DNA of 43,750 nt from a virus, in the IMG/VR virus record IMGVR_UViG_3300033143_003067, one strand, 5' to 3'. Positions 1 through 33,866 of the stretch are shown piece after piece (within the stretch, counting starts at the first letter, position 1; each line of letters begins with the position of its first letter). Both the position numbers and the translations under genes were made by a program. The notes under the pieces are model-generated. The model made no database searches, was not told the origin of the DNA, and was given only the letters and a program-made list of their open reading frames with translations.

Positions 1-114
1 TAATACTTTAATATCCATATTTACAGGAGCGCTTAATGCTACGATATATTTCTACGATACTGCTATATCTGATTGGGGAACTTCTACGGTAACTAATCTT
101 GATAATAACGCTAA
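1..114. repeat. Terminal direct repeat, copy 1 (identical to 43637..43750). The contig closes into a 43,636-bp circle.
   Basis: All 114 nt match 43637..43750 when read side by side. A long ORF reads through the junction in frame. Confidence 0.95.
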
Positions 115-1249
115 AGTAAGAACAGCAGTATTTAATGATAGAGTATTTATAGTTAACGGAATTACCTCTGCTCGTTCATCTTTAGATATTGGCAATGACT
201 GGAATTATGAGAATACGCCTAATAATGTTATTCCATCATTAATATTCAGAACTAAAGAACGATTGATATGCGCTGGAGTTCCTGCTTATCCAGATAGAGT
301 ATATTTTTCATCTGTGATTGATCCGACTGCCGCACCTTTTATAACTTGGAATAATGATAATGATACTGGAGATTTTATAGATATAAATCCTAACGATGGT
401 TCAAATATAACTGGTTTTGCTGAATCTTCTAATCAAACACTTATATTCAAAGAACACGCTTTATACAGAATGAATGTCATCTCTAAAACAGTTGATAATG
501 AAAGTATCTCTAATGTAGGAGCAGTTTCACAAGAGGGAATAACAACTTGTCAGGGAATAGTGTATTTCTTTAGTGGAATTGATATTAGAAGAACTAATGG
601 AGGTTATCCAGAACAGATTTCACGGTTAGGAGTTCAAGATTGGATAGATGCTATTCCACAAGCTAATTGGAAGAATGTTGTTGCTGGACAAGATGGCTGG
701 AATGTTACTTTCGCCATAGGAGATATTACTTTAAATGAAAATCAAGATAATGAAAGAACATACAAGAATGTAGAATTGAAGTTTTCTACAAGAGATGAAA
801 CTTGGTCAGTTCATTCTAAAGCAGATAGATATAGAGCATTTGCTAATTATACTACTGAAACAGATGGCAGAAAAATGGTAGGAGCTGAAAGAGATGGAGC
901 AGTTCAGACAATAGATAAAGGAACGACTGATAACACTACTCCAATATATTACGAGTTAGAAACACAAGAGCAAGAATTTGGAAATAGATTTCATCTTAAA
1001 AAGATTTCAGACAAATTAAGCGTGATTTGTCAATATGGATTAGATGGCGCTTTCCAAGCAAAAGAGAATGATGGAGATTTTAAGGATTTGAATATAACTT
1101 TAAATAAAAGAGTGAATATAGGGCAAAAGATTAATTTAGAGGGTAATTTCTTCACTTTTAGGTGGTATGGTAATTCCAGCCAAAAAGCTCCTATTTTAGA
1201 GGGGATTTATGTGGAAAACATAACAGATTTAGGATTTATAAAAAAATGA
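1..1249 (+). CDS. Virion structural protein, 3' part of the junction-spanning gene that starts at 43404 (493 aa once circularised)
   Basis: The frame of track ORF 263..1249 stays open back to nt 2 and is in phase with the ATG at 43404 (43637 = nt 1). Stop 1247-1249 overlaps the next ATG (ATGA). Confidence 0.8.
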   Translation, partial: NTLISIFTGALNATIYFYDTAISDWGTSTVTNLDNNAKVRTAVFNDRVFIVNGITSARSSLDIGNDWNYENTPNNVIPSLIFRTKERLICAGVPAYPDRVYFSSVIDPTAAPFITWNNDNDTGDFIDINPNDGSNITGFAESSNQTLIFKEHALYRMNVISKTVDNESISNVGAVSQEGITTCQGIVYFFSGIDIRRTNGGYPEQISRLGVQDWIDAIPQANWKNVVAGQDGWNVTFAIGDITLNENQDNERTYKNVELKFSTRDETWSVHSKADRYRAFANYTTETDGRKMVGAERDGAVQTIDKGTTDNTTPIYYELETQEQEFGNRFHLKKISDKLSVICQYGLDGAFQAKENDGDFKDLNITLNKRVNIGQKINLEGNFFTFRWYGNSSQKAPILEGIYVENITDLGFIKK

Positions 1250-2037
1250 GTTTAGAAAACTACGACAAATTTGGAAATTATATTGACGCAATGAAAGAGA
1301 ATTTTAGTTTGCTTCCTAATCAAGTTACAGATGAGATAAATTCATCAATAATACCAAGAATAAAAGAACAAACTGTTATTGAAGGTTCAACTTATTTAAC
1401 TGGAACATTTGTATCTACTGAAGTTACTTTAGCAGAAGAAAGAATAAACTCTTTATTTAAAAAATATGTATTTATAGGAAGTTATCAAGATGCTTTGACA
1501 GAAACACCGGGAGCAGGCGGCTCTATATCAAGATTTTTAATATTAACAAGATTAAGGTCAGCTGGAGTAGATTGCACTCTAAGTAGTGTTAGAACTGATG
1601 TATCTTCTGGAGGCACATTTCGCACCTCTGTCAGAGATTTTGAAACAACAATGGCAGTTCAATTAAGTGCTATAGTAACTCAAGATGTTATTTGGGGAAT
1701 AACAGATGGAAATACTACTTTACCTGTTAATGCTGCTCTGGTTACTCATCATTTTGCTTTTATAGTAGAAGATGGTGATTTATATGCTTCAAATGGAGAT
1801 GGAAGTCAAACCAAAACTCAAATTACTGGTATTACTCTTACTGATTTGAATGTTTATAGGATAGAATATGATGCTTCTACTGGAATAACAAAGTTTTATG
1901 TTAATGATGTATTAGAAGTAACTCATACTACTGATGGTTCAGGAGCAACCGACCCCAGTTTCTTGTTCGGAATAAATGCTATTGCTGGAACTAAAGATTT
2001 AAAGATTACAAATAATTATATGATAATACATTCATAA
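1246..2037 (+). CDS. Virion protein of unknown function (263 aa)
   Basis: Track ORF, ATGA-coupled to the upstream gene, with its stop 1 nt before the next ATG. It lies inside the structural operon. Confidence 0.75.
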   Translation: MSLENYDKFGNYIDAMKENFSLLPNQVTDEINSSIIPRIKEQTVIEGSTYLTGTFVSTEVTLAEERINSLFKKYVFIGSYQDALTETPGAGGSISRFLILTRLRSAGVDCTLSSVRTDVSSGGTFRTSVRDFETTMAVQLSAIVTQDVIWGITDGNTTLPVNAALVTHHFAFIVEDGDLYASNGDGSQTKTQITGITLTDLNVYRIEYDASTGITKFYVNDVLEVTHTTDGSGATDPSFLFGINAIAGTKDLKITNNYMIIHS

Positions 2038-2038
2038 T

Positions 2039-3358
2039 ATGCCAATTACTACATCACAAGGAAAAATGCCTTCAATAGGAGAAGTTTATATAGAAAAAAC
2101 TTATTCTGGCCAACCGGGTTATTTTAGGATTTTCAAAATGACAGAACAAGGCCCAGATTTTTATAAAGAAGATAAAGCTCATTTTTATCAGCCTTCTACT
2201 GGAAAGATATATAAATCGGGAACTACTACTCAATTTGAAGATACAGGAGAGAAATTAGACACTACACCTCCTAAATATAATACAGCAGATGTAAGTTCTT
2301 TTGCTGAAAGTGCTGAATTTGCTCAAATACAGGGAGTTCCATATACAGGAAGGCAACGATATACAGAACAGCAATTAACTGGGGAAGTTCCTAAAATAGG
2401 AGAAGTTGGAGGAGTTGGAGTGCCTAGAGGAACTACGCCTACTCAAGGAGGAGGACAACCTACAACTCACGAAGTTAGAGAGGGAGAAACGCTTTCTCAA
2501 ATAGGACAGAGATACGGAGTAGATTGGAGGCAGATAACAGGATTTCGTTCTGGAGACCCGGACCTTATTTATCCGGGTGAAGTTTTAAATATACCTTCTG
2601 GTGCTGGAGGACAAGTTCCAGGACAAATCGCTCCTACTGGGCAACCAGGCGACACAGGAGGTGTTTCAGGGAGGGGAATAGTAGGAGGAGATGGTGGAGT
2701 GCCAATATCAAATATCCCTGAAGAAATAAGAAATATGTTAAGTCCTGAAGAATTATCATTCTGGGAGCCGATGTGGGCATTTTTAGCTCAAAAACAAGAA
2801 CAAGGAAAAGAAATTCCGCCAGTTCTTTCACCTGCTGAATTAGATTCACTTTGGCAAGAAGCAAAAGCAGATCCAGTCATTTCCAAATATTTTTCTGATC
2901 AATTAAGAATAGGAGAAACAAATTTAACTAATATGATAGCGGATGTAGCCGAAGAAAGTGGACAGTGGAGTCGTGAACAAAGTGAGGTATTTAAGCAACA
3001 ACGAATAACAGGAGCAGAAGAAGCTGTAGCTGGAGGCAGAGCATTTTCAGGCTACCGTCAACAAGCCCGAGAGCGTCTTCAAAGGGAACAAACAGGTATA
3101 GTTTCTTCAACAAGGCGACAATTACAAAGACAATTACGCCAAGCAGGACAAGCATTTGAAACTGCGTTTGGAACTGCTCAACTTCCAACAATGGGATTAC
3201 CTTTTACTGATCCTCTTACTAAAAAAACTGAACAACTACAATTTCAATCATACGGAGATATTGCTGGAGGTGCGGCAACCGAACAATTATCAGCAGAAGA
3301 ACAAAGGTATCAAGATTTAATAAGAGAAAGTTTACAACAGAAAGGAGCTTACTATTGA
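2039..3358 (+). CDS. LysM-domain virion protein (439 aa) with Gly/Pro-rich linkers and a Gln/Arg-rich C-terminal helix
   Basis: aa 143-186 HEVREGETLSQIGQRYGVDWRQITGFRSGDPDLIYPGEVLNIP fits the LysM peptidoglycan-binding motif. Confidence 0.75.
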   Translation: MPITTSQGKMPSIGEVYIEKTYSGQPGYFRIFKMTEQGPDFYKEDKAHFYQPSTGKIYKSGTTTQFEDTGEKLDTTPPKYNTADVSSFAESAEFAQIQGVPYTGRQRYTEQQLTGEVPKIGEVGGVGVPRGTTPTQGGGQPTTHEVREGETLSQIGQRYGVDWRQITGFRSGDPDLIYPGEVLNIPSGAGGQVPGQIAPTGQPGDTGGVSGRGIVGGDGGVPISNIPEEIRNMLSPEELSFWEPMWAFLAQKQEQGKEIPPVLSPAELDSLWQEAKADPVISKYFSDQLRIGETNLTNMIADVAEESGQWSREQSEVFKQQRITGAEEAVAGGRAFSGYRQQARERLQREQTGIVSSTRRQLQRQLRQAGQAFETAFGTAQLPTMGLPFTDPLTKKTEQLQFQSYGDIAGGAATEQLSAEEQRYQDLIRESLQQKGAYY

Positions 3359-3373
3359 CAATTTAATAAGGAA

Positions 3374-3464
3374 ATCTTATAATTAAAGTAAAGCTGTTGG
3401 TTTTTATTATGCCCCCGCATAGCCAACAGCTTAGCGGGGGCGTTTATTAACTAATTATAAGATT
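3374..3464 (+). promoter_or_regulatory. Structured leader, copy A, in front of an HNH gene: TATAAT box, two interleaved GC-rich helices, U-tract
   Basis: H1 is AAGCTGTTGG 3391-3400 / CCAACAGCTT 3423-3432. H2 is GCCCCCGC 3411-3418 / GCGGGGGC 3434-3441, followed by GTTTATT. The conserved blocks recur at 14858-14949. Confidence 0.6.
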
Positions 3465-4190
3465 ATGATTAAAAGAAACTCAAAAGGACAATTTGTTAAA
3501 GGAATTATTCCACATAATAAAGGAAAGCAATGGTCTAAAAAGCATAAAATAAAACTTAAGTTAGCTTGGATTAAAAGAAAGGAAAAAGGATATATAACTT
3601 GGAATAAGGGAAAACATATAAAAGTTAACGATGCTTTAAAAATATGGAGAGAAAATGGAGGTCAACCTTGGAATAAAGGTAAAAAAGAATTACAAGTTGC
3701 TTGGAATAAAGGAAAGGAAATGTCTAATAAATATAGAAAAAAATGTAGTAAAGCACAAAAAGGAAAAAAACTTTCTAAAGAAACAAAAAATAAATTAAGT
3801 AAAATAGCAAAAGAAAATGGATTTGGTCAATGGATGAAAGGTAAGAAGCTTTCTGAAGAAACAAAAAGGAAATGTAGTGAAGCACATAGAGGAAAAAAAT
3901 CATATAACTATAAAGGTAATTCTAAATTATGTCATCTTATAAGGAATTGTTATAAATATAAACAATGGACTAAAGCAGTTTTTGAAAGAGATAACTATAT
4001 TTGCCAAAAGTGTAAAATAAGAGGAGGAAAACTCCACGCTCACCATATTAAAAAGTTTAGTTTAATTTTAGAAGAAAATAATATCAAATCATTAAAAGAA
4101 ACACTTAATTGCGAAGAATTATGGAATATAAATAATGGCATAACATATTGTAAAATATGCCATAAAATAATACATAAAAAATATGCCTAA
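3465..4190 (+). CDS. HNH homing endonuclease with N-terminal NUMOD3-like repeats
   Basis: C-terminal CQKCK..HAHHI..NNGITYCKICH matches the HNH motif. WNKGK and KGKKLS.ETK.K modules repeat in the N-terminal part. Confidence 0.85.
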   Translation: MIKRNSKGQFVKGIIPHNKGKQWSKKHKIKLKLAWIKRKEKGYITWNKGKHIKVNDALKIWRENGGQPWNKGKKELQVAWNKGKEMSNKYRKKCSKAQKGKKLSKETKNKLSKIAKENGFGQWMKGKKLSEETKRKCSEAHRGKKSYNYKGNSKLCHLIRNCYKYKQWTKAVFERDNYICQKCKIRGGKLHAHHIKKFSLILEENNIKSLKETLNCEELWNINNGITYCKICHKIIHKKYA

Positions 4191-5514
4191 CCCTACTAAT
4201 TTATACGAATACTATACTTCAAAAGGTCAACAATTACCTTCAATTCAAGAAAGGGGTGTTTTATATTCTCAACAAGGATTAGGAACTGGATATACTGGAA
4301 CAGCAGAACAAAATACTGCTTTACTTCAAAAACTATCGGTAGGAGATATTTCAGGAACTATGACTATTCCTCCGGTAGGAACTACACCTACTACTCCAAC
4401 TCCACCACTAGCAGGAGGAACGCCAGAAACGACAGGAGGACAAACAGGTATGGGAACTACTGATCCTATGAGATTTTATACAATAATGGATCAGATGAGT
4501 CAGAAGCTTAATAAAAATCAAGAATTAGTTGATATGAGGAATAAGGTGTTTACTCATTTATACGATAGGCCTTTGACAGATGAGGAGAGAGGTGCTTTGA
4601 CTCCGGAGCTTCAGCACGCAATAGAAACCAATGACTTTAATTTGATAAATTTTCACGTAAGAAAAATTAATGACGAAATTAAGGGTAGGAAAGACACTTT
4701 AGATCAGAGTATTGAATTCCTTTCAAGAGGATATGAATTACAACAGCAACAAATTGAAAGCCAAAGAGAACGAGCAGAAAGTATTTTAATGAGTGGTTTA
4801 GAAAAATATGGAGGCGATATATTAAACATTTATAGTCCTGAACAAATAGAACAATTAAGAAATATGGGATATGACATTGCTGGAATTGCCGGATTGCCAA
4901 GTGTAGAAGAAATAAAGGCAGGATTAAAGGGGGGAATTGGAACAATTCCCGGACAAACAATATCCTATGAACAATTATCTCCTACTGCTAAATTAGTTGT
5001 TGATGGAACTTTTAAACTATCTGATATTACTCCTACTCAAAAACAAGCGATAGCCAGTGAATTAGTTGCTTATGGATTTACTTATGCTATGGCTCAAGCA
5101 GATCAACAGAATGTTAGTTATATTAAAAATCAGTTAATGGGTGGAGGAGAAATAACATCTGATGAAAGTGTATTAGGTTCTTGGAAGAAAATACCCGATC
5201 AATATAAAGGACTTATTCAAGGTGCTTGGGGAGAACTTATAGGAAAAAAGATAAGTCCTGAAGTAGCGAGATTTAAAGCTTCTCAAGGAATAGTAGGTAT
5301 GCAACTTACACGATTATATGAAAAGGGTCGTATTTCCGATCAAGACAGGATATTTTATTTAAGTTTAATGCCTAATCTTTATATGAATGAAGCCGCAGCA
5401 GTAGCTGGGGCTAATGAATTAGTAAGATTATTACAAGAAAAATTAACTAATCAAGTAAATGAATTAGAGGGTTTGGGAGCAACCCAAAATGATTGGGAAT
5501 ATATCCCAGAATAA
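4183..5514 (+). CDS. Virion-associated protein of unknown function (443 aa), with a Thr/Pro/Gly-rich linker
   Basis: Track ORF. It overlaps the HNH stop by 8 nt and lies in the structural operon. Confidence 0.75.
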   Translation: MPNPTNLYEYYTSKGQQLPSIQERGVLYSQQGLGTGYTGTAEQNTALLQKLSVGDISGTMTIPPVGTTPTTPTPPLAGGTPETTGGQTGMGTTDPMRFYTIMDQMSQKLNKNQELVDMRNKVFTHLYDRPLTDEERGALTPELQHAIETNDFNLINFHVRKINDEIKGRKDTLDQSIEFLSRGYELQQQQIESQRERAESILMSGLEKYGGDILNIYSPEQIEQLRNMGYDIAGIAGLPSVEEIKAGLKGGIGTIPGQTISYEQLSPTAKLVVDGTFKLSDITPTQKQAIASELVAYGFTYAMAQADQQNVSYIKNQLMGGGEITSDESVLGSWKKIPDQYKGLIQGAWGELIGKKISPEVARFKASQGIVGMQLTRLYEKGRISDQDRIFYLSLMPNLYMNEAAAVAGANELVRLLQEKLTNQVNELEGLGATQNDWEYIPE

Positions 5515-14550: not shown

Positions 14551-14571
14551 TTCTTTTAAGGAGGTAGAAAA

Positions 14572-14784
14572 ATGGCGACCACAGAGGTCAAGTCAAACCT
14601 TGTTTACAGCAAGGAATTGGTCAATTTTGTAGCATATGCCAATGCGTGTAGGCATATCAAGGAATTGTTAATTGCTGCCGAAAAGACCAACGAAGTTGTT
14701 ATAATTGAGGTTTGGCAGTTTCCAGACACAAGACCTCCAGAAGCAACAGCCAAAATGAGGCTGGAACAGGACCTAAAGGGCTGA
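14572..14784 (+). CDS. Moron-like small protein of unknown function (70 aa)
   Basis: It is the only gene I found with a canonical AAGGAGG upstream of its ATG. Hand-counted GC is about 44%. A strong hairpin follows. Confidence 0.55.
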   Translation: MATTEVKSNLVYSKELVNFVAYANACRHIKELLIAAEKTNEVVIIEVWQFPDTRPPEATAKMRLEQDLKG

Positions 14785-14797
14785 GTTGCTTCTAACA

Positions 14798-14845
14798 AAG
14801 TCAAGGGGGGAAATTCTGAACTTCCCCTCAGTCCCCCCTTGACTT
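14798..14845 (+). terminator. 13-bp perfect inverted repeat hairpin downstream of 14572..14784
   Basis: AAGTCAAGGGGGG 14798-14810 pairs with CCCCCCTTGACTT 14833-14845. TTCCCC in the loop (14822-14827) can pair instead with GGGGAA. No clean T-run follows. Confidence 0.5.
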
Positions 14846-14857
14846 ACTTATTCTAAT

Positions 14858-14946
14858 ATCTTATAATTAAAGTATCCTGCGAGGAACATAAACTATTTAT
14901 GCCCCCTTAATCCTCGCAGGTTCTGGGGGCGTTTAATTATAAGATT
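14858..14946 (+). promoter_or_regulatory. Structured leader, copy B, in front of an HNH gene
   Basis: H1 is CCTGCGAGGA 14876-14885 / TCCTCGCAGG 14911-14920. H2 is GCCCCC 14901-14906 / GGGGGC 14925-14930, followed by GTTTAATT. The flanking blocks match copy A. Confidence 0.6.
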
Positions 14947-15507
14947 ATGCCAACAGGAATATATAAACATAAACCGCTTTCTAAAGAACATAAAAGAAAA
15001 ATAAGTGAAGCGATGAAAGGAAAGAGACCCCAAGATTATAAAAATTGGTGTCCAAGTTGTGGAATGAAAGGAAAAGTTGGTTATTGGAAAGGAAAAAAAA
15101 GACCATTGGCAGGACAATGGATGAAACAATTTAAAGGAAAAGGACTTCAATCTTGGATGAATATAAGTGGTTTAAAAAAAGGACAAGGTTGGAATAAGGG
15201 AGGAACTTCATGGAGTAAAGGTAAAAAATTATCTAAAGAACATGTAGAAAAAGTAAGACAATCTTTAATTAAAAGATCAGATAGAATTGGAAGGAAAAAA
15301 TATATAAGACCTAAACATAATACTCATTGGAAATATAGAGAATGGAGAAAATTAGTTTATGAAAGAGATAATTATAAATGTTGGATTTGTGAAGCTACTA
15401 ATTTGAATGCTCATCATTTGAAGTCGTGGGCTAAATATCCAAAATTAAGATACAAAGTAAATAATGGTTTAACTCTTTGTGAGTTTTGTCATAAAATATA
15501 TGCTTAA
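14947..15507 (+). CDS. HNH homing endonuclease with NUMOD3-like N-terminal motifs
   Basis: CWICEATNLNAHHLKSW..NNGLTLCEFCH matches the HNH motif. The N-terminus has MPTGIYKHKPLSKEHKRKISEAMKGK and WNKGG/SKGKKLSKEH repeats. Confidence 0.85.
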   Translation: MPTGIYKHKPLSKEHKRKISEAMKGKRPQDYKNWCPSCGMKGKVGYWKGKKRPLAGQWMKQFKGKGLQSWMNISGLKKGQGWNKGGTSWSKGKKLSKEHVEKVRQSLIKRSDRIGRKKYIRPKHNTHWKYREWRKLVYERDNYKCWICEATNLNAHHLKSWAKYPKLRYKVNNGLTLCEFCHKIYA

Positions 15508-20011: not shown

Positions 20012-20176
20012 TTAGGTTATTTTCTTTAATAATAAACAAACCCCGAAAATACCAATAATAAACCCTCCTAAAAAACTGAAAATATATGAAATTGGCGGTT
20101 CAATTAAAACATTCATTAAATATCCCCATAATCCTCCCGCTATAAGTATAATAATTATCTTTATTGCTATTTTCAT
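20012..20176 (-). CDS. Two-TM small membrane protein (54 aa)
   Basis: Hand-translated as MKIAIKIIIILIAGGLWGYLMNVLIEPPISYIFSFLGGFIIGIFGVCLLLKKIT; 55 codons checked. Confidence 0.5.
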   Translation of the reverse strand: MKIAIKIIIILIAGGLWGYLMNVLIEPPISYIFSFLGGFIIGIFGVCLLLKKIT

Positions 20177-20188
20177 AAGGTTATTAGG

Positions 20189-20422
20189 TTAGCCAGAGCC
20201 ATAGCCAGAGCCAGAGCCATAGCCAGAGCCATCGCCAGAGCCAGAGCCATAGCCATAGCCATCGCCATAGCCATAGCCATCGCCATAGCCAGAGCCAGAG
20301 CCATCGCCATAGCCATCGCCATAGCCAGAGCCATAGCCAGAGCCATAGCCATAGCCATAGCCAGAGCCATCGCCAGAGCCATCGCCAGAGCCACGCATAT
20401 ATTCTTTATCTATTGTTTCCAT
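20189..20422 (-). CDS. Glycine-dipeptide repeat protein, METIDKEYMR-(G-[S/D/Y])x33-G
   Basis: Track ORF. Its ATG overlaps the end of the upstream gene, and its stop lies 12 nt before the next ATG. The codons form a strict (GGC-TCT/GAT/TAT) array. Confidence 0.55.
   Translation of the reverse strand: METIDKEYMRGSGDGSGDGSGYGYGYGSGYGSGYGDGYGDGSGSGYGDGYGYGDGYGYGSGSGDGSGYGSGSGYGSG
20192..20392 (-). repeat. About 33 tandem hexamers, GGC-[TCT/GAT/TAT] on the - strand
   Basis: On the + strand this reads as AGAGCC / ATCGCC / ATAGCC units without interruption. Confidence 0.9.
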
Positions 20423-20769
20423 ATTTTTACTGAAGCTATACTTTCTTGAGCTTCTTTAGAACAATCCAAGATTTCTATTGCTTCTAATAGTTCAACACTA
20501 TCTACTTCTACTGGAAACTTACAATTTTCAGGTTTGGATACTCCTTCCATTGCTAATTGGGATAAAGAAGCCGCACCTTCCCAATACCACAATCTACGAG
20601 CTTTTAATAATATAACTTCTTTGTTTTTTCGGCTTTTTAAATATCCAGCAAAAACTCCCGCTGAATAAGTGCGAATAATCACATAAGGCATTCCTTTTAA
20701 AGAAATAGCTTTTGTTTTAACTTCGCTTTGTGGGACATATTTTATCCCGTCTATTGTTATTGTTTTCAT
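20410..20769 (-). CDS. Hypothetical protein (119 aa; RLWYWEGAASLSQLA motif)
   Basis: Track ORF in the early operon. Confidence 0.65.
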   Translation of the reverse strand: MKTITIDGIKYVPQSEVKTKAISLKGMPYVIIRTYSAGVFAGYLKSRKNKEVILLKARRLWYWEGAASLSQLAMEGVSKPENCKFPVEVDSVELLEAIEILDCSKEAQESIASVKIWKQ

Positions 20770-20799
20770 AATTATTTACCCATTCCCATAAATAGGTAG

Positions 20800-20979
20800 T
20801 TAGTCATAGTTAGAAAGCAGTTTAAAGCTCCAGCTCCCGCTCCCGCTCCTGCTACTGCTCCTGCTACTGCTCCCGCTCCAGCTCCAGCTCCTGCTCCAGT
20901 TCCTGTTCTCGCTCCCGCTCCAGCTCCAGTTCCTGCTCCAGCTCCAATTTAATATATTATAAGAATTTATTAAAAACAT
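20800..20979 (-). CDS. Repeat microgene unit A. The ATG frame gives MFLINSYNILNW + W/S/R-rich (59 aa). The +1 frame gives Gly-Ala repeats. The frame is unresolved.
   Basis: Hand-translated. 20 GGAGCN-type hexamers lie at 20826-20946. All three - strand frames are open. Confidence 0.35.
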   Translation of the reverse strand: MFLINSYNILNWSWSRNWSWSGSENRNWSRSWSWSGSSSRSSSRSGSGSWSFKLLSNYD

Positions 20980-20994
20980 ATTACCAAAAAGCAG

Positions 20995-21135
20995 TTAAAA
21001 GCTCCAGCTCCTGCTCCTGCTCCAGCTCTCGCTCCTGTTCCCGCTCCAGTTCCAGCTCTTGCTCCCGCTCCTGCTCCCACTCCTGTTCCCGCACCATCTC
21101 CAATTTAATATATTATAAGAATTTGTTAAAAACAT
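20995..21135 (-). CDS. Repeat microgene unit B, paralogue of unit A (ATG frame 46 aa). The frame is unresolved.
   Basis: The ATG lies 1 nt after the stop of 21137..21448. 17 hexamers lie at 21001-21102. The 44-nt head is identical to unit A apart from 1 nt. Confidence 0.35.
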   Translation of the reverse strand: MFLTNSYNILNWRWCGNRSGSRSGSKSWNWSGNRSESWSRSRSWSF

Positions 21136-21136
21136 A

Positions 21137-21448
21137 TTACCAATTGGGAGACCAAAAACTCTCAATAGCATTTCTCATAACATATACATTACTTGGAAGT
21201 TCTTGCTTATCTACTGGATTACTTGCTTTAAGTTCGCCAGTTTCATAAATTATGCTTGCTTTTGTAAGCTCTATGTAATTAGCATTTATGCTTTCGACCT
21301 TTCCGTAATAAATATATCTCGCGCATTGAAAGAGATATGTCTTGCCAATAAGCTCATCAAGGTTCTCTATTTCTTGAACCTCACTTTCGCCTGATTGTTC
21401 TTTTATCTTGTCATAGGTTTCATCTGAAACCTCAATTGTTTTTGTCAT
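21137..21448 (-). CDS. Hypothetical protein (103 aa)
   Basis: Track ORF. Confidence 0.65.
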   Translation of the reverse strand: MTKTIEVSDETYDKIKEQSGESEVQEIENLDELIGKTYLFQCARYIYYGKVESINANYIELTKASIIYETGELKASNPVDKQELPSNVYVMRNAIESFWSPNW

Positions 21449-27396: not shown

Positions 27397-27476
27397 ATAT
27401 TTTTTAGTTATGATTTATTACCTCATCCTTATATTTTAATCTTATCATACCAAGATACCTTGTCAACCTCAACCTG

Positions 27477-28213: not shown

Positions 28214-28921
28214 TTATTTATAAACTATATCTTTCTTATTACCATTAAACTCAAGCCATTGGCCGCCCTCTTTAGGAATACACCAGAGTTTACCTTTGAC
28301 ATCTCTAACTTCTAAATCGTTATAATAGGGTTTTTTCCCATCTTCTCTTTTTTTAAAAGAAGAAGGATTTGTATTCTTATTCTTATTAAGATTAAGATTA
28401 AGATTAGAATTAAGATAGTTCAAAGGGTATGTATAGGGTATAGATAGGGTATTCAATCTATATCGTATTGATTGGGGTATTTTATCTAAAATTGTCTCTA
28501 TTCCTGTCTTTATTAGAGGACTTCTGTTATATTCTTGATGTTTTGGGAAGTTAGCTATTATTATCCAACTATCAATATAGGTTATTTTTTTATCTTTTTT
28601 AAACTTTTTAAGTATATTATTAACTGCTTTCATTTTTATTCCAGTATCAAAAGATATTTGTTTTAAAGATATTTCATAAATCCCAGCTATATTTGTTAGA
28701 GGATTTGTTAGAAAGTATAAAAATAAATACTTTTGAGTAGGATCTAAATCTGAAATATAGCTATCAGTCCAGAATTTTGTATTAATATAGCGATGACTTG
28801 CCATTATAAAACGAAGCGCCTCCAAACCAGTGAAGGCGTGGAGGCACAACTTTAAGCTCAAAATTGTATTAGTGTGATAGTTGCCTTCACTGGATACTTT
28901 AATTTTATCAAACCAAGACAA
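28214..28921 (-). CDS. DnaD-like replisome organiser / replication initiation protein. The likely true start is ATG 28804.
   Basis: FWTDSYISDLDPTQKYLFLYFLTNPLTNIAGIYEISLKQISFDTG resembles the phage DnaD/replisome-organiser N-terminal domain. The segment 28805-28921 is packed with GC-rich inverted repeats. Confidence 0.6.
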   Translation of the reverse strand: MSWFDKIKVSSEGNYHTNTILSLKLCLHAFTGLEALRFIMASHRYINTKFWTDSYISDLDPTQKYLFLYFLTNPLTNIAGIYEISLKQISFDTGIKMKAVNNILKKFKKDKKITYIDSWIIIANFPKHQEYNRSPLIKTGIETILDKIPQSIRYRLNTLSIPYTYPLNYLNSNLNLNLNKNKNTNPSSFKKREDGKKPYYNDLEVRDVKGKLWCIPKEGGQWLEFNGNKKDIVYK

Positions 28922-28966
28922 TAAGTCAATAACCTTGTTCTGTGGAAAACTCCATCTTTTTGCCTA

Positions 28967-28994
28967 TTGACTTTCTCTGTCAGTATGCTAAGAT
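28967..28994 (+). promoter_or_regulatory. Sigma70-like promoter candidate for the tRNA-like RNA
   Basis: TTGACT (28967-28972), a 16-nt spacer, then TAAGAT (28989-28994). Confidence 0.3.
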
Positions 28995-29034
28995 AGAATC
29001 ACTCAAGCCATAGAAATTACCACTTGGGTTTTAT

Positions 29035-29252
29035 GGGATAGTTGCTAGTTAGGAAGAACTAGATAGGAAGCAAGATGACAACTTACTTCTGAAATTATAA
29101 TTAGGGTTGCGAATCCTTTTGGTGTTGCCCATCATTTCGTCTGGGGGTTAAAAGTTTCTAAGCCGAAGAGCCCGAAAGGGTGGGCGAAAGCCCCGTTCGG
29201 CAAAGAAGCGAACCAGTAAAAACCAATGGGGTGCGAATCCCCATCTATCCCT
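29035..29252 (+). ncRNA. tRNA-shaped structured RNA with a 135-nt insert (three-way junction with two GAAA tetraloop hairpins). It is not a canonical tRNA.
   Basis: The acceptor-like helix is GGGATAG 29035-29041 / CTATCCC 29245-29251. The T-arm-like hairpin spans 29226-29244 (loop TGCGAAT). The anticodon-like loop AUGACAA spans 29075-29081. The three-way junction spans 29162-29201. Confidence 0.5.
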
Positions 29253-29297
29253 TACTATCATGACAAATCAAAATACTCATTTTAATAAAGATGAAAC

Positions 29298-29327
29298 AGC
29301 CCTTTAAAAGTAGGGTTTTTATTTTTT
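29298..29327 (+). terminator. Intrinsic terminator candidate after the structured RNA
   Basis: AGCCCT 29298-29303 pairs with AGGGTT 29312-29317 (one G.U) and is followed by TTTTTATTTTTT. Confidence 0.5.
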
Positions 29328-29334
29328 AAGAATT

Positions 29335-29490
29335 ATGGCAAGTGAAAAAAAACAATTGAATAAGAATATATCAGAGAACCCAATTTTTATAGTTTTTGGG
29401 TCAATAGTAATTAGATTATTGGAATTAAACGCAATAGTAATGTCTTTCGGTTTAATTATCTATATGATTTTTCTTGCTTTTGTTAAATAA
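29335..29490 (+). CDS. Small membrane protein (51 aa)
   Basis: Hand-translated as MASEKKQLNKNISENPIFIVFGSIVIRLLELNAIVMSFGLIIYMIFLAFVK; 52 codons checked. Confidence 0.45.
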   Translation: MASEKKQLNKNISENPIFIVFGSIVIRLLELNAIVMSFGLIIYMIFLAFVK

Positions 29491-29627
29491 GATTGTAATA
29501 ATGTGGAAGTATTACTCATTTATTTTTTGGACTATGGGTAGAATATTGGAAGTTATGCTATGAAATATATTTTTTCAAAGCATTAAAAGAGTATTCTATC
29601 CAGAGTTCAGTAAATAACCCTTTCACC

Positions 29628-29795
29628 CTAAAGCAGGGACATCATTTCAAGGTTTCACTTATAAGCGGATAAGCCCAAATTATTCCGAAAAGCAGAGACA
29701 GAAATCAAGTAAGTGGTGTTCCATACTTTCTTTTTATTTTCAACCTTTATCTATTCATTGAAAGTAAAATTCTGTCTGTTATGTCTCTGCTTTAG
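29628..29795. promoter_or_regulatory. Three copies (two direct, one inverted) of a 15-nt motif CTAAAGCAG[A/G]GACAT upstream of the late operon
   Basis: The copies lie at 29628-29642, 29687-29701 (GAAAAGCAGAGACAG) and, inverted, 29781-29795. Confidence 0.55.
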
Positions 29796-29813
29796 GTTAA
29801 AAATACTAAAACA

Positions 29814-30023
29814 ATGCTTAAACAAAAAGGTAAAATAGGTATATTCAATAAGTATAGTTATCATTGCGATGAATGTAAAAAAGAACTAAAAGATATGAAT
29901 GATTATCCAATGTTATTTAATGGAATAAAAACTGAATGGGACTATATTATGAGAGATACTTTAAGAATTGGTAATAAGTGGCAACAAATAAAATCAATAA
30001 TTTGTAATAATTGTTTGAATTAA
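29814..30023 (+). CDS. Zinc-ribbon protein, first gene of the late operon (69 aa)
   Basis: HCDECKK...ICNNCLN. Confidence 0.6.
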   Translation: MLKQKGKIGIFNKYSYHCDECKKELKDMNDYPMLFNGIKTEWDYIMRDTLRIGNKWQQIKSIICNNCLN

Positions 30024-30043: not shown

Positions 30044-30418
30044 ATGACTCCTAAGCAACAGAAGCTAATAAATATCATTACAGAGAATTACAGAGATAAA
30101 AAAACTACAAAAACTTTAAAGAAAATGCTCTTGGAAGCTGGATATACTACTGAAACTTCAGAACAGGCAATTAGGATATTAGAAAGTAAAACTATTCAAG
30201 ATAAATTATCTCCTATTGTTGATAAATTAAATAAAAAAAGAGATAAAGCATTAAAGTTTATTTCAGATGAGAAATTAAAAAAGAGTTCAGCAAGAGATTT
30301 ATCAGGTATAGTAGATGTTTTAACTAAAAACTCTCAACTATTATCAGGCAAAGAAACAGAAAAAGCAGGTATAACTATTGAAGTAGTAGATTATGATAAA
30401 GATAACAATTCCCCATGA
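30044..30418 (+). CDS. terS: Terminase small subunit (putative)
   Basis: 124 aa, helical and basic, immediately upstream of terL and overlapping it. Confidence 0.6.
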   Translation: MTPKQQKLINIITENYRDKKTTKTLKKMLLEAGYTTETSEQAIRILESKTIQDKLSPIVDKLNKKRDKALKFISDEKLKKSSARDLSGIVDVLTKNSQLLSGKETEKAGITIEVVDYDKDNNSP

Positions 30419-31682
30419 ATATACGCCAAGAAGTTATCAGTTAGAACTTTTAAAAGCACCACAAAGATTCAAGATAGCTGTCTGGAATAGAAGAAGCGGT
30501 AAATCTAAAACAGCTCTTAATCAGCAGATAGCCAGAACACAAAAAAGAAAAGGTATCTACTATTATTTCCTCCCAACTTATAAACAAGCCAAGCAGGTAA
30601 TATGGGATGCATTAGTTAAAGAACATATCCCTCTTGAAATAGTAGATAAATTAAACGAAAGTGAGTTAGCAGTTTATTATAAGAACGGAAGTATTCAAAG
30701 ATTTGCTGGTTGTGAGGATATAGATAAACATAGAGGAATAGGCCCGATAGATATAGTTTTTGATGAGTATGCTGAGATTAACGAGGAAATGTGGAATGCT
30801 ATTATTCAGCCGGTATTAAGAGAAAATCAAGGCACAGCCACATTTATCTTCACTCCTAAAGGAAAGAACCACGCTTGGAAGTTATTAGAAAAGGCTAAGC
30901 AGAATCCTAATTACTGGTATTGGAGCGTAAAAGATGTTTATGAAACCGACTCCATACCCTTAGAAGAGATAGAAGAAGCTAAGCGAGATATGACTGAGGT
31001 TCTTTTTAATCAGGAGTTTCTCTGTGAGTTTCACGAAGGAGCTGGTCAGGTATTTAGAAGAATAAAAAAGAATCTTTATAGTGGTCATTTAAGCATAGAA
31101 GCAGATAAGAGATTTAGAATAGGAGTAGATCTAGCCAAGCATCAGGATTGGACTGTTCTTACTCCATTTGACCTTACAAGCTTCAAGGTAGGACATCAGG
31201 ATAGATTCAACCAGATAGATTGGAACTTACAAGAAGCGCGCATAGAAGCTATGCATTTGAGGTATAATAAGGCCTTGATACGAGTAGATAGCACAGGAGT
31301 TGGAGACCCTATCTATGAAAATCTTAGTAAAAAGAGATTACCAGTAGAATCTTATCAATTCACAGAACGAAGCAAGCAGGCATTGTTTGAAAATCTCGTT
31401 ATCTTATTAGAAAAAGATAAGATAAAGCTTCCTAATGATATAGGGTTGATAGAAGAATTAGAAAGCTGGCAGTATAAATATGACGAGAAGACTAAGAAGA
31501 TTAAAATGGAAACTAACACCACAGATGACCGAGTAATAAGTTTAGCCTTAGCAGTCTGGGACTTGCCTAATGTTCCATTAAGTTATCAAAAAGAAAGAGA
31601 ACGAGAAATCTTGAGCCAATTTGACCATTATAAAGATAAACCACTCAAACAGCGAGGAGTGGAGAAGTATAAGATATTATGA
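30393..31682 (+). CDS. terL: Terminase large subunit
   Basis: Walker A-like NRRSGKSKT. Walker B IDIVFDEYAE. The nuclease half has GVDLAKHQDWTVL, RVDSTGVGDPIYE and TDDRVISLALAVW. Confidence 0.85.
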   Translation: MIKITIPHEYTPRSYQLELLKAPQRFKIAVWNRRSGKSKTALNQQIARTQKRKGIYYYFLPTYKQAKQVIWDALVKEHIPLEIVDKLNESELAVYYKNGSIQRFAGCEDIDKHRGIGPIDIVFDEYAEINEEMWNAIIQPVLRENQGTATFIFTPKGKNHAWKLLEKAKQNPNYWYWSVKDVYETDSIPLEEIEEAKRDMTEVLFNQEFLCEFHEGAGQVFRRIKKNLYSGHLSIEADKRFRIGVDLAKHQDWTVLTPFDLTSFKVGHQDRFNQIDWNLQEARIEAMHLRYNKALIRVDSTGVGDPIYENLSKKRLPVESYQFTERSKQALFENLVILLEKDKIKLPNDIGLIEELESWQYKYDEKTKKIKMETNTTDDRVISLALAVWDLPNVPLSYQKEREREILSQFDHYKDKPLKQRGVEKYKIL

Positions 31683-31888
31683 ATCTTTTAAAAGCTCTTA
31701 AATCTCTATTCAAGAAAAAAGAACCAGTTAAGAAAAAAGAACCAGAAATAGTTGAAGAAATCAAAGAAGACATCAAACCAGAAATAGAAAGCAAGTATAA
31801 AATAATAAAAGAATGTCCTGGTGGTTTTCATTCTTGGATAGAAAAAGACGGAAGAATAATGAGAAAAGAGAACAAATATGTCTATTAA
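31679..31888 (+). CDS. Small Lys/Glu-rich protein (69 aa)
   Basis: Track ORF, ATGA-coupled to terL. Confidence 0.55.
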   Translation: MNLLKALKSLFKKKEPVKKKEPEIVEEIKEDIKPEIESKYKIIKECPGGFHSWIEKDGRIMRKENKYVY

Positions 31889-32162
31889 ACCATTCAACGA
31901 AAATATCCTAATAAAACCCATAAAACCAGAAAAAACCAAGTCAGGACTTATCTATCCAGACACTAACAAGTCAGAAAACATAGCAGAAGGCGAAGTTATT
32001 TCAACTGGAGCAGGTCGTCATACTTTAGTGGGAGTCCTTCCCTTAAAGATAAAAAAAGGAGATAAAGTAATTTTTATCCACTATTCTCCTCGTAAGATAA
32101 AGCATAAAGGAGAGGAGTTTATGCTTATTAGCGAGGATGATGTGTTGGCTGTGGTAGAATGA
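31878..32162 (+). CDS. groES: Co-chaperonin GroES
   Basis: 94 aa. IKPFNENILIKP...KTKSGLIYP...AEGEVISTGAG...KKGDKVIF...ISEDDVLAVVE aligns along the full length of GroES. Confidence 0.85.
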   Translation: MSIKPFNENILIKPIKPEKTKSGLIYPDTNKSENIAEGEVISTGAGRHTLVGVLPLKIKKGDKVIFIHYSPRKIKHKGEEFMLISEDDVLAVVE

Positions 32163-32309
32163 AAAACTTTGAAACCAGATTAAACGACCATAAACTCTCT
32201 TTAGAGTTATTATATTGCCTTATAAAAACACTCTTCTATCATTTAAAGTTAGATTATAAGATAGAGAGAGATACGAGTGGGTATGTTATAAAAATTAAAC
32301 CTAAAAAAA

Positions 32310-33866
32310 ATGGACGAAAAAATAATACTATTCAATAAAACAGCTAAAGACAAATTATTAAAAGGAATAAACAAAGTAGCAGACGCAGTAAAGATAACGC
32401 TGGGTGCTACTGGCAGGAATGTAGTAATAAAAGATGAAGTAGTCCCAGCTTTCTCCACGAATGACGGAGTATATATATCCCGTAAGATACACTTAAGAGA
32501 TGAAGTAGAAGAAGCTGGAGCTGATATTATAAAAGGAGTAGCAGAACATACTAACGAAGCAGTAGGAGATGGCACAACTACTTCAATCGTCTTGGCTCAA
32601 GCTCTTATTAACGAAGGATTAAAGTATAAGGTAAATCCCTTAAAGATAAGAGCTGGAATGAAAAAGGGATTAGAAGTTCTTATCAAAGAGATAGAAAAGT
32701 TAGCCAAGCCTATTAAAACAAAAGAAGAAATGAAGCAGATAGCCACTATATCTGCTGAAAACGAGGAGATAGGAGAGCTTATCGCTGATACTATCAAGGA
32801 AGTAGGGCAAGATGGTGTTATCAAGATAGAAGAGTCTAAGACATTTGGATTAGAGAAAGAAATAGTGGGAGGTATTCAGTTTAATAGTGGATATATATCT
32901 CCATATATGATAAATAAGTTTGATAAATTAGAAGCTGAATATGAAGATCCATTGTTCTTAATAACTGATAAAAAGATTTCTATGGCTAAGTCTGAATTGA
33001 TGCCCATATTAGAGAAAGTAGCCCAATCAGGTAAGAAAGAGCTGGTAGTCATAGCAGAAGATATAACTGATTCAGCTTTAGCTACCTTAGTAGTTAATAA
33101 AGAAAGAGGTTTGTTTAATGCTCTGGGGATAAAAGCACCCGATAAGGAAGTATTACAAGATTTAGCTCTTATTACTGGAGCAACGCTAATATCAGAGGAA
33201 ACAGGATTAAGATTAGAAAGTTTTGAGATGAAACATCTGGGTAAAGCTAAGAAAGTAATTTCCACTAAAGATAATACTACGATTATAGGGGGTAAGGGTA
33301 ATGTTAAAGATAAAATTAAGCAAATTAAGGCAGAAATAGAGAAATCTAAACAATCTGCTGATTTATTAGAAAGATTAGCTCGTCTTACAGGAGGAATAGC
33401 AGTTATTAGCGTAGGCGCTGCTACTGAAATAGAGAGAAAAGCCAAGCAACACAAGGTAGAAGATGCTCTGAATGCTACTAAAGCTGCTGTTGATGGAGGG
33501 ATTGTGGCAGGGGGGGGAGTTGTGTTGTTAAGATTAAGGAAAACAAAGATGTATGCTTATGATAAAGATGAAGAAACAGGAAGTAAGATATTAAAAAAGG
33601 CATTAGAAGCTCCTATTAAGCAGATGGCAGAAAACGCTGGATTAGAGGCAGATAAACTTATAGCAAGTATATTAGAAAAAGACGAAATAAATTACGGATA
33701 CAATTTTAATACTAATAAATACGAGGATTTAGTTGAGAATAAAGTAGTTGACCCAGCTAAGGTCCTAATATCTACATTAACCAATGCTGTTTCAGCTGCT
33801 GGTATATTTCTTACAACAGATTGTGTTATAGCAAAAAAAAGGTTGCCATTAAATAATGGCAGATAA
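32310..33866 (+). CDS. groEL: Chaperonin GroEL (518 aa, no C-terminal GGM tail)
   Basis: AVGDGTTTSIVLAQAL, VISVGAATEIERKAKQHKVEDALNATKAAVDGGIVAGGGVVLL and VVDPAKV are GroEL signatures. Confidence 0.92.
   Translation: MDEKIILFNKTAKDKLLKGINKVADAVKITLGATGRNVVIKDEVVPAFSTNDGVYISRKIHLRDEVEEAGADIIKGVAEHTNEAVGDGTTTSIVLAQALINEGLKYKVNPLKIRAGMKKGLEVLIKEIEKLAKPIKTKEEMKQIATISAENEEIGELIADTIKEVGQDGVIKIEESKTFGLEKEIVGGIQFNSGYISPYMINKFDKLEAEYEDPLFLITDKKISMAKSELMPILEKVAQSGKKELVVIAEDITDSALATLVVNKERGLFNALGIKAPDKEVLQDLALITGATLISEETGLRLESFEMKHLGKAKKVISTKDNTTIIGGKGNVKDKIKQIKAEIEKSKQSADLLERLARLTGGIAVISVGAATEIERKAKQHKVEDALNATKAAVDGGIVAGGGVVLLRLRKTKMYAYDKDEETGSKILKKALEAPIKQMAENAGLEADKLIASILEKDEINYGYNFNTNKYEDLVENKVVDPAKVLISTLTNAVSAAGIFLTTDCVIAKKRLPLNNGR

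Follow-up and report, generated by a model that had tools for sequence, protein, structure and literature searches.

The window analysed here, the whole 43,750-nucleotide (nt) stretch of IMG/VR virus record IMGVR_UViG_3300033143_003067, is a complete circular phage genome with 32.9% G+C, and the element under study occupies positions 29035-29251 of its + strand, in the control region between the early and the late genes. The element is probably, if not provenly, a real structured non-coding RNA gene, and this is considered likely because promoter-like and terminator-like sites bracket it, because it forms a G+C island and because no credible open reading frame (ORF) covers it. As to what such an RNA would be, the reading favoured here, at a probability of roughly 0.4, is that of an early-expressed, stand-alone and stable non-coding RNA, matured by way of a handle that resembles transfer RNA (tRNA); transcription, processing, stability and any partner of this RNA are what we infer from the DNA sequence.

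The promoter-like and the terminator-like site lie on the same strand as the element. The rightward promoter mirrors a leftward promoter at 28929-28902 (inverted repeat I1), 37 bp apart, and one unusual format, namely TTGAC(T/A), a 16-nt spacer with TG and TAA(G/A)AT, is common to three promoter-like sites: 27439-27466 (- strand), 28902-28929 (- strand) and 28967-28994 (+ strand). The rightward transcript would start at about 29001. The G+C content of the element is 44-53%, against a genome mean of 33% (standard deviation 6%). The sole ORF that overlaps it encodes 37 amino acids (aa) on the minus strand, and the gene caller of the source left the corresponding stretch without a call in L082 (sample 3300033141; 100% identity), which carries the only other copy found. 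The features on which the argument depends are the following.

28967-28994, + strand: sigma-70-type promoter-like site from the promoter scan, TTGACT-16-TAAGAT, with TG before the -10 box (extended -10)
29001-29034, + strand: putative 5′ leader, with a predicted 7-bp hairpin (29001-07/29023-29) and U at -1
29035-29041, + strand: 5′ strand of the terminal, acceptor-like helix, GGGATAG; 7 bp, pair probability 0.99-1.00
29045-29062, + strand: first side hairpin ('D-like'), 6 bp with a 6-nt loop or 4 bp with a 10-nt loop; probability 0.84-0.95
29066-29090, + strand: second side hairpin, with the 7-nt loop AUGACAA; probability 0.78-0.99
29103-29117, + strand: upstream copy of the T-like motif, GGGTTGCGAATCC (repeat D3), 12/13 identical to 29228-29240
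29119-29225, + strand: rod-like domain, with helices 29146-49/29211-14, 29154-59/29204-09 and 29162-67/29196-201 and a side hairpin at 29128-45
29170-81 and 29182-93, + strand: two G-C-stemmed GAAA hairpins of the three-way junction at the tip of the rod; probability 0.76-0.99
29226-29244, + strand: T-arm-like hairpin ATGGGG/CCCCAT with the loop TGCGAAT; 6-bp stem, directly abutting the 3′ strand of the terminal helix
29245-29251, + strand: 3′ strand of the terminal helix, CTATCCC, followed by T29252 and TAC
29298-29327, + strand: intrinsic-terminator-like hairpin (29298-29317) and T-run found by scan, with an upstream A-rich tract that pairs with the T-run

In the scheme proposed for the element, host RNA polymerase would transcribe from both of the mirrored promoters, one in each direction, as soon as infection begins. 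The sigma-70 form of the enzyme would transcribe the element rightward from this divergent early control region and stop at the intrinsic terminator, giving a primary transcript of ~327 nt (~29001-29327). The terminal 7-bp helix would stack on the T-arm-like hairpin to form an acceptor/T-arm 'minihelix' with U at -1, a G1-C72 pair and no CCA, and this minihelix would be the handle seen by the tRNA-maturation enzymes of the host. RNase P might then cut before G29035, followed by 3′ trimming and perhaps CCA addition, to yield a stable RNA of ~218 nt. Its working parts would be the two side hairpins and a 107-nt rod tipped by the three-way junction, through which it may bind a partner, protein or RNA, or titrate it in the early phase of infection.

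Fold of the element and its standing among known RNA families

The helices put forward in an earlier, sequence-only reading of this region were all borne out, at the positions given, when the letters were checked. GGGATAG (29035-29041) and CTATCCC (29245-29251) are perfectly complementary, there is no encoded CCA, and position 3:70 is a G-C pair; the hairpin at 29066-29090 has nine stem positions, one of them a C.A mismatch, and the loop ATGACAA; the insert that follows measures 135 nt (29091-29225); and GCCGAA/TTCGGC (29162-67/29196-201) encloses CCC-GAAA-GGG and GGGC-GAAA-GCCC. One detail had to be amended: the spacer after GGGATAG is TTG (29042-44, 3 nt) and not TT. The CTAG/CTAG hairpin at 29045-29062 is present and extends, in the minimum free energy (MFE) structure, to 6 bp (CTAGTT/AACTAG). 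Apart from the T hairpin, every helix is predicted with pair probabilities of 0.76-1.0 (ViennaRNA), and the junction of the whole element is five- or six-way. The plus strand folds better than the minus strand by 8.5 kcal/mol (MFE -90.7 versus -82.2 kcal/mol), and the GAAA loops are found on the plus strand only. For 29035-29252 the fold has a z-score of -2.8 (300 shuffles), and for a 341-nt segment one of -2.4; by raw MFE, the element ranks second lowest among the 348 genome windows of 220 nt.

The T hairpin, also part of the earlier description, is there in the sequence and is absent from the MFE fold. Its low ensemble probability arises because the MFE structure pairs the upstream copy (29104-17) with 29228-41. 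Indeed, both GGGGTGCGAATCC (29228-40) and its 12/13 match upstream, GGGTTGCGAATCC (29104-16), are near-palindromes and can, therefore, pair mutually, giving a rod form; the upstream copy may thus form a weak 3-bp hairpin of its own or, alternatively, provide one strand of a long-range duplex with 29228-29241. Forcing the T hairpin in a constrained fold costs +2.0 kcal/mol, which is inside the error of an energy model that also ignores the tertiary stabilization of T-loops, so that the T-hairpin and the rod folds both remain.

How far the element resembles a tRNA can be stated in detail. A 7-bp terminal helix and an abutting hairpin with a 7-nt loop are common to both, and the 7-nt loop of the second side hairpin has U in second place and a purine after the central triplet. 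The linker after the terminal helix, in contrast, is 3 nt rather than 2 nt; the first hairpin has 4-6 bp, where a D stem has 3-4 bp; the second has nine stem positions, compared with the 5 bp of an anticodon stem; 135 nt separate the second and the T-like hairpins, where a variable region has 4 to ~24 nt; and the T-like stem has 6 bp instead of 5 bp, with G at loop position 55. The resemblance is confined to the terminal helix and the abutting T-like hairpin. Thus, the term 'tRNA-shaped', which had been applied to the whole, suits the acceptor/T-arm-like handle and not the remaining body.

The related idea of a cloverleaf with an oversized variable region had to be given up. When the insert was deleted in silico and replaced by a range of short variable loops, with the 9-position stem either trimmed to 5 bp or left as it is, ARAGORN still called no tRNA at its default threshold; the calls on these constructs were inconsistent, appeared only at the 80% threshold and had poor D arms. 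The earlier view that the element is not a standard tRNA, a tmRNA (transfer-messenger RNA) or a tRNA with an anticodon-loop intron is upheld by the same programs on the native sequence: ARAGORN finds neither tRNA nor tmRNA genes in the window, so that the whole phage genome has no tRNA gene by this measure, and Rfam 15 has no match over the window at its gathering threshold. A permissive Rfam search of 28800-29500 returned just chance matches at E>=1, with no tRNA match at E<=10.

Individual families were considered as well. Like the element, tmRNA (ssrA) has an acceptor stem and a T arm joined by a large domain, with a total length of a few hundred nt. It has, however, a G3.U70 pair and a tag frame, whereas the element has G-C at this position and no tag-like frame by eye, and it lacks the two extra hairpins that the element carries between the 5′ strand and the large domain. 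ARAGORN in tmRNA mode (-m) found nothing down to a 50% threshold and no Rfam tmRNA family matched even at E<=10, and with pair 3:70 being G-C and not G.U a tmRNA identity was rejected. There is no match to the group I intron model of Rfam (Intron_gpI) even at E<=10, and an insert of 135-143 nt seems short for a group I core. No Rfam match was obtained to the bacterial Y RNA (YrlA), which combines a tRNA-like module with a Ro-binding stem, and no Ro60-like (Rsr) gene was found among that part of the phage ORFs whose proteins were scanned. The element belongs to no catalogued RNA family and is, in this sense, an orphan candidate.

A predicted tRNA array with the same loop sequence and the search for relatives

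The loop TGCGAAT recurs in a setting in which its nature is clearer. A pattern search for two TGCGAATCC motifs brought up L090, a 5.2-kb locus (1-5189 read; 62% G+C) that is part of the 120-kb contig IMGVR_UViG_3300033153_010718 and, to judge from the close sample numbers (3300033153 and 3300033141), probably comes from the same study as L082. About 30 tRNA genes are predicted in these 5.2 kb, and every T-loop among them reads T54-G55-C56-R-A (GGTGCGAATCC or GGTGCAAATCC) in place of T-T-C-R-A; at the canonical G18-G19 of the D-loop, all 22 tRNAs that were aligned have A-G. ARAGORN and Rfam still call these genes tRNAs, and the pattern has the appearance of a co-variation of the elbow pair 18:55 across a whole tRNA set. 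We know of no description of A18/G55 phage tRNA sets, and a literature search for the loop sequence returned nothing relevant. The loop of the element corresponds to the T54-G55-C56 variant of these ~30 predicted genes; because TGCGAAT is, by its sequence setting, a genuine T-loop variant in the tRNA genes of this phage, the tRNA resemblance of the element gains some weight. Furthermore, a covariance model built from 22 of the L090 tRNAs with the TGCGAAT-type loop (R2), run with filters off over the whole window, has its best match, local to the T arm, exactly on 29227-29243. No other feature of the genome is as tRNA-like as the terminal helix with the T-like hairpin.

These features also bear on the possibility, distinctly unlikely in our view, that the element is a decayed or disrupted tRNA gene, in which the acceptor stem and the T arm survive, the D and anticodon arms are no longer canonical and additional sequence has been inserted, and which would now be non-functional or a mere transcriptional spacer. 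A 7-bp terminal helix, an abutting T-like hairpin with the loop of predicted tRNA genes and a 7-nt loop with U second and a purine after the central triplet are what such a relic might retain, and ARAGORN, in an intron search at lowered threshold, can be made to force a tRNA-Pro(AGG) with a 143-nt intron. The forced models, however, have poor D arms, an odd insertion point in the case of the tRNA-Pro(AGG), and appear at thresholds of 70-80% only, and neither the group I intron model nor any other in Rfam matches. Moreover, in a genome with 33% G+C, decay would be expected to drift towards A+T, whereas the insert is the most G+C-rich and best-paired part of the element, and promoter and terminator are intact.

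A bolder reading, and a quite improbable one, takes the same observations as signs of a new, chimeric class of phage RNA, in which a tRNA-derived handle with the rare T54-G55-C56 loop carries a functional 135-nt domain at the position of the variable region. The handle would recruit RNase P or the CCA-adding enzyme, and perhaps an elongation factor or a synthetase, and the RNA could toggle between a cloverleaf-like form and the rod form in which the two TGCGAAT motifs are paired; alternatively, the two T-loop motifs might grip the elbow of another RNA.

The search for relatives covered several collections. With blastn, the element had just a 27-nt chance match among GenBank phages. In the 80 closest IMG/VR loci with TerL relatives (<=64% identity) it is absent by nhmmer, blastn and a covariance model built on the element itself (R1), and ARAGORN found no tRNAs in the 22 closest of the TerL relatives (L002-L023). 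R1 also served within the window, where a second RNA of the same kind was rejected: the model matches only itself, and the other G+C islands that were inspected in detail, at 20151-20450 and 20761-21150, exceed the element in G+C content and code for Gly-rich repeats. The genome reaches its highest G+C content (up to 63%) at 20173-20422 and 20800-21171 on the - strand, in low-complexity repeat ORFs rather than RNA genes; these contain GSGYG/GDGYG repeats and two tandem units in which near-identical A+T-rich heads are followed by GAGCNG-type repeats.

Protein neighbours led no further. In a set of 5.8 billion proteins, the TerL relative of highest identity (87%) is encoded on a contig of 1.5 kb, and the second (72%), on a short contig too, has a different upstream region. 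Relatives of the replisome organiser have 41-63% identity, and the contigs fetched for them (45-63%) differ in gene order and carry other genes upstream and nothing comparable to the element; the first late ORF (69 aa) has no homologue. One distant organiser relative (43% identity; L094 1-2600, L095 1-3400) lies in an apparent prophage beside host secE-nusG-rplK, a context that might help to identify hosts of the phage group.

Six DNA patterns were, in addition, run over IMG/VR, JGI metagenomes and 185,579 genomes. The T-arm pattern gave 1 chance match; the junction pattern had 0 matches in IMG/VR and, when relaxed, 7 chance matches in coding sequence of the metagenomes; the paired T-loop pattern returned just the tRNA array and Cys-rich repeats; the T arm followed by the 3′ strand had 0 matches in the 185,579 genomes; the twin GAAA hairpins had 2 unrelated matches; and an arm of the inverted repeat downstream of the element had 7 chance matches. 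An attachment site (attP) made of a host tRNA 3′ end was also rejected, since no integrase was recognized and no genome matched the T arm with the 3′ strand. The window's own contig, although it matches the pattern, was not among the results of the metagenome scan; the source project thus lies outside the metagenome collection, and the absence of relatives is weak evidence.

The surrounding control region and the genes on either side

An exact direct repeat of 114 nt at the two ends of the window (1-114/43637-43750) indicates that the contig closes to a circle, with a genome length of 43,636 bp. On the + strand, from ~29.8 kb through the contig end to 16.5 kb, lie structural, packaging and lysis genes, among them TerL (30393-31682), GroES/GroEL, portal and peptidase/endolysin; the phage's own GroES (Cpn10) and GroEL (Cpn60) follow directly after the terminase genes, at 31878-33866. 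Early and replication genes occupy the - strand between 28.8 and 16.5 kb, including those of a DnaD-like replisome organiser, a Cas4-like exonuclease, an SSB-like protein and HNH nucleases. No integrase was recognized in family scans of the phage proteins. The organiser gene, which has a PHROG match to replisome organiser/DnaD-like helicase loader, most likely starts at ATG 28801 rather than at TTG 28921, because the PHROG matches begin at residue 1 of the shorter form and the database protein has 196 aa. The non-coding control region covers at least 28802-29334 and effectively reaches 29813, with just one uncalled 51-aa ORF between, the first convincing late ORF starting at 29814.

This arrangement lends itself to the strongest rival of the favoured reading, in our estimate an improbable one, according to which the late operon has in the element a terminated leader of the lambda PR′-6S RNA-tR′ type. 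In this case the packaging and structural genes would be expressed from the rightward promoter, 29298-29327 would normally end transcription, and the late genes would be switched on when read-through is brought about by a phage factor or by the folded leader; proteins could bind to the G-C-stemmed GAAA hairpins in the manner of boxB. The succession of promoter, structured RNA, terminator and genes is the classic layout for such a device, a scan limited to sigma-70-type sites found no other promoter of this kind on the + strand between the terminator and terS/TerL, and attenuation may be a theme of the region, given that the leftward leader has a terminator-like hairpin with an alternative 11-bp pairing. 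As in the lambda late leader, a constitutive-looking sigma-70 promoter would yield a short terminated transcript with the late genes downstream. The lambda leader is not known to fold into multiple G+C-rich helices, and its function requires Q, which acts at the promoter.

Unlike in lambda, no Q-like gene was recognized here, nor an N-like one, though many small early ORFs are unassigned, and no competitive antiterminator pairing was found for the element. The best pairing that would disrupt the terminator (29103-08/29298-303) costs ~5 kcal/mol and breaks the terminal helix, and a terminator/antiterminator switch by way of the upstream T-like copy was rejected. Furthermore, ~480 nt of A+T-rich, poorly coding DNA, together with a structured element at 29621-29802, intervene before the first late gene, so that a separate late promoter of unknown type is just as possible, and the late region contains other consensus sigma-70 promoters (3355-3383 and 14839-14867).

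Structured sequence is not limited to the element. The leader of the leftward early operon (28802-28897, - strand) is strongly structured, with a z-score of about -6.7 for 28785-29005 of the minus strand (16 shuffles); in it, a perfect 11-bp pairing (28827-37/28883-93) competes with a terminator-like hairpin and U-run (28838-28817) that stands just ahead of the organiser ATG at 28801, and the leader looks like an attenuator. The second non-coding element, at 29621-29802 (fold z -3.9), just 5′ of the first late ORF, has a long-range inverted repeat of 16-22 bp (CCCTAAAGCAGGGACAT/ATGTCTCTGCTTTAGG) that encloses more hairpins, and could be a 5′ untranslated region, a packaging signal or another RNA. 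Very strong structure (MFE -138 kcal/mol, z -7.4) is also found at 14560-14950 on the + strand, including a G+C-rich 14-bp hairpin at ~14797-14850; the near-consensus promoter at 14839-14867 precedes the HNH/lysis genes, and a small ORF with a GGAGG ribosome-binding site apparently starts, by eye, at ~14573.

The position of the element, ~230 nt upstream of the organiser gene, also raises the question of a role at the DNA level, be it as replication origin, as binding platform of the DnaD-like organiser or as packaging signal, the RNA structure being incidental. Short repeats are at hand (GGGKTGCGAATCC, CTAGNTAGGAAG and TGKGATAGTTGC, each present twice). They are, however, short and two-copy only, with no iterons (>=3 copies) and at a level that the repeat tool flags as often due to chance, and TGCGAATCC is not enriched in the genome. 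An origin would be expected to be A+T-rich, whereas the element is a local G+C maximum and the A+T-rich, repeat-bearing stretch is 29335-29600 instead. With the GAAA loops and the strand asymmetry of promoter and terminator pointing to RNA, a DNA-level role is very doubtful. No result of the analysis speaks for the tertiary docking by GNRA loops, or for the origin or priming role, that the earlier reading had suggested.

Relation to known phage RNAs and weight of the candidate

Among the closest known systems are C4 of P1/P7 and the CI RNA of P4, which, like the element, are small non-coding RNAs of a phage control region. Bacterial RNase P matures, besides tRNAs, 4.5S RNA, tmRNA and phage regulatory RNAs (e.g. 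C4 of P1/P7), and it recognizes the precursors of such phage RNAs in that part of their fold mimics the acceptor/T-stem stack of pre-tRNA (PMC4919922). The element has a similar acceptor/T-stem-like stack, U at -1 and G1-C72, here seen in sequence alone. Its core of ~217 nt is much longer and without sequence similarity to C4 and CI, which measure ~70-80 nt and base-pair with target sites in phage transcripts. Between the element and the leftward leader there is complementarity over 11/12 nt (29034-45 with 28873-84; repeat D5), which falls in the paired 5′ strand; antisense pairing to this leader was set aside, as the duplex energy is matched by 25% of shuffled leaders and is no better than chance.

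Phage T4 offers another parallel in its species 1 and 2 (rnaC/rnaD), stable RNAs of ~120-140 nt, of unknown function, that are matured with the phage tRNAs through tRNA-like ends. They resemble the element in the general idea of a tRNA-handled, non-decoding phage RNA. The T4 RNAs are encoded inside a tRNA gene cluster, whereas the phage described here has no tRNA genes and the element has a promoter and a terminator of its own.

Several results weigh against an RNA matured through such a handle. No gene for an RNA-handling enzyme was recognized among the phage proteins scanned. The nearest-neighbour model disfavours the T hairpin, with an ensemble probability of 0.05-0.07, and the coaxial stack of terminal helix and T hairpin would have 13 bp, where that of a tRNA has 12 bp. 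The R2 match is local to the T arm and, at 13.3 bits and an E value of 0.19 by a rough calibration, is not significant alone. The geometry of the minihelix, defined as a hairpin of 6 bp with a 7-nt loop that abuts a 7-nt strand with its exact complement 40-300 nt upstream, is expected ~1.1 times per genome when both strands are counted; an adjacent pair of GNRA-capped hairpins occurs in 42% of genome shuffles; by z-score the element ranks just 16th of the 348 windows of 220 nt; and no homologue was found in any collection searched, so that neither conservation nor covariation can be adduced. These last points, from the geometry onwards, would equally be met with if an unconstrained spacer happened to fold and its tRNA likeness were the best-looking spot picked from 43 kb. 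Such an origin by chance is nevertheless given a rather slim probability: when this intergenic region of 533 nt is shuffled, the minihelix motif turns up in just 0.3% of cases, and a G+C island, a promoter/terminator bracket and several independent high-probability helices coincide within 217 nt.

At present, the element is a single-sequence candidate that offers a concrete and cheap experimental target, and a seed model for searches of assemblies. Should it prove real and be processed in the way set out above, it would be a further member of the few phage RNAs that make use of the tRNA maturation machinery but are not tRNAs, with a body that is much larger and differently built, and in an uncultivated, low-G+C phage lineage. 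It would also tie in with the L090 tRNA set and its co-varied A18/G55 elbow, which suggests that the T-loop is an evolutionary playground for phages.

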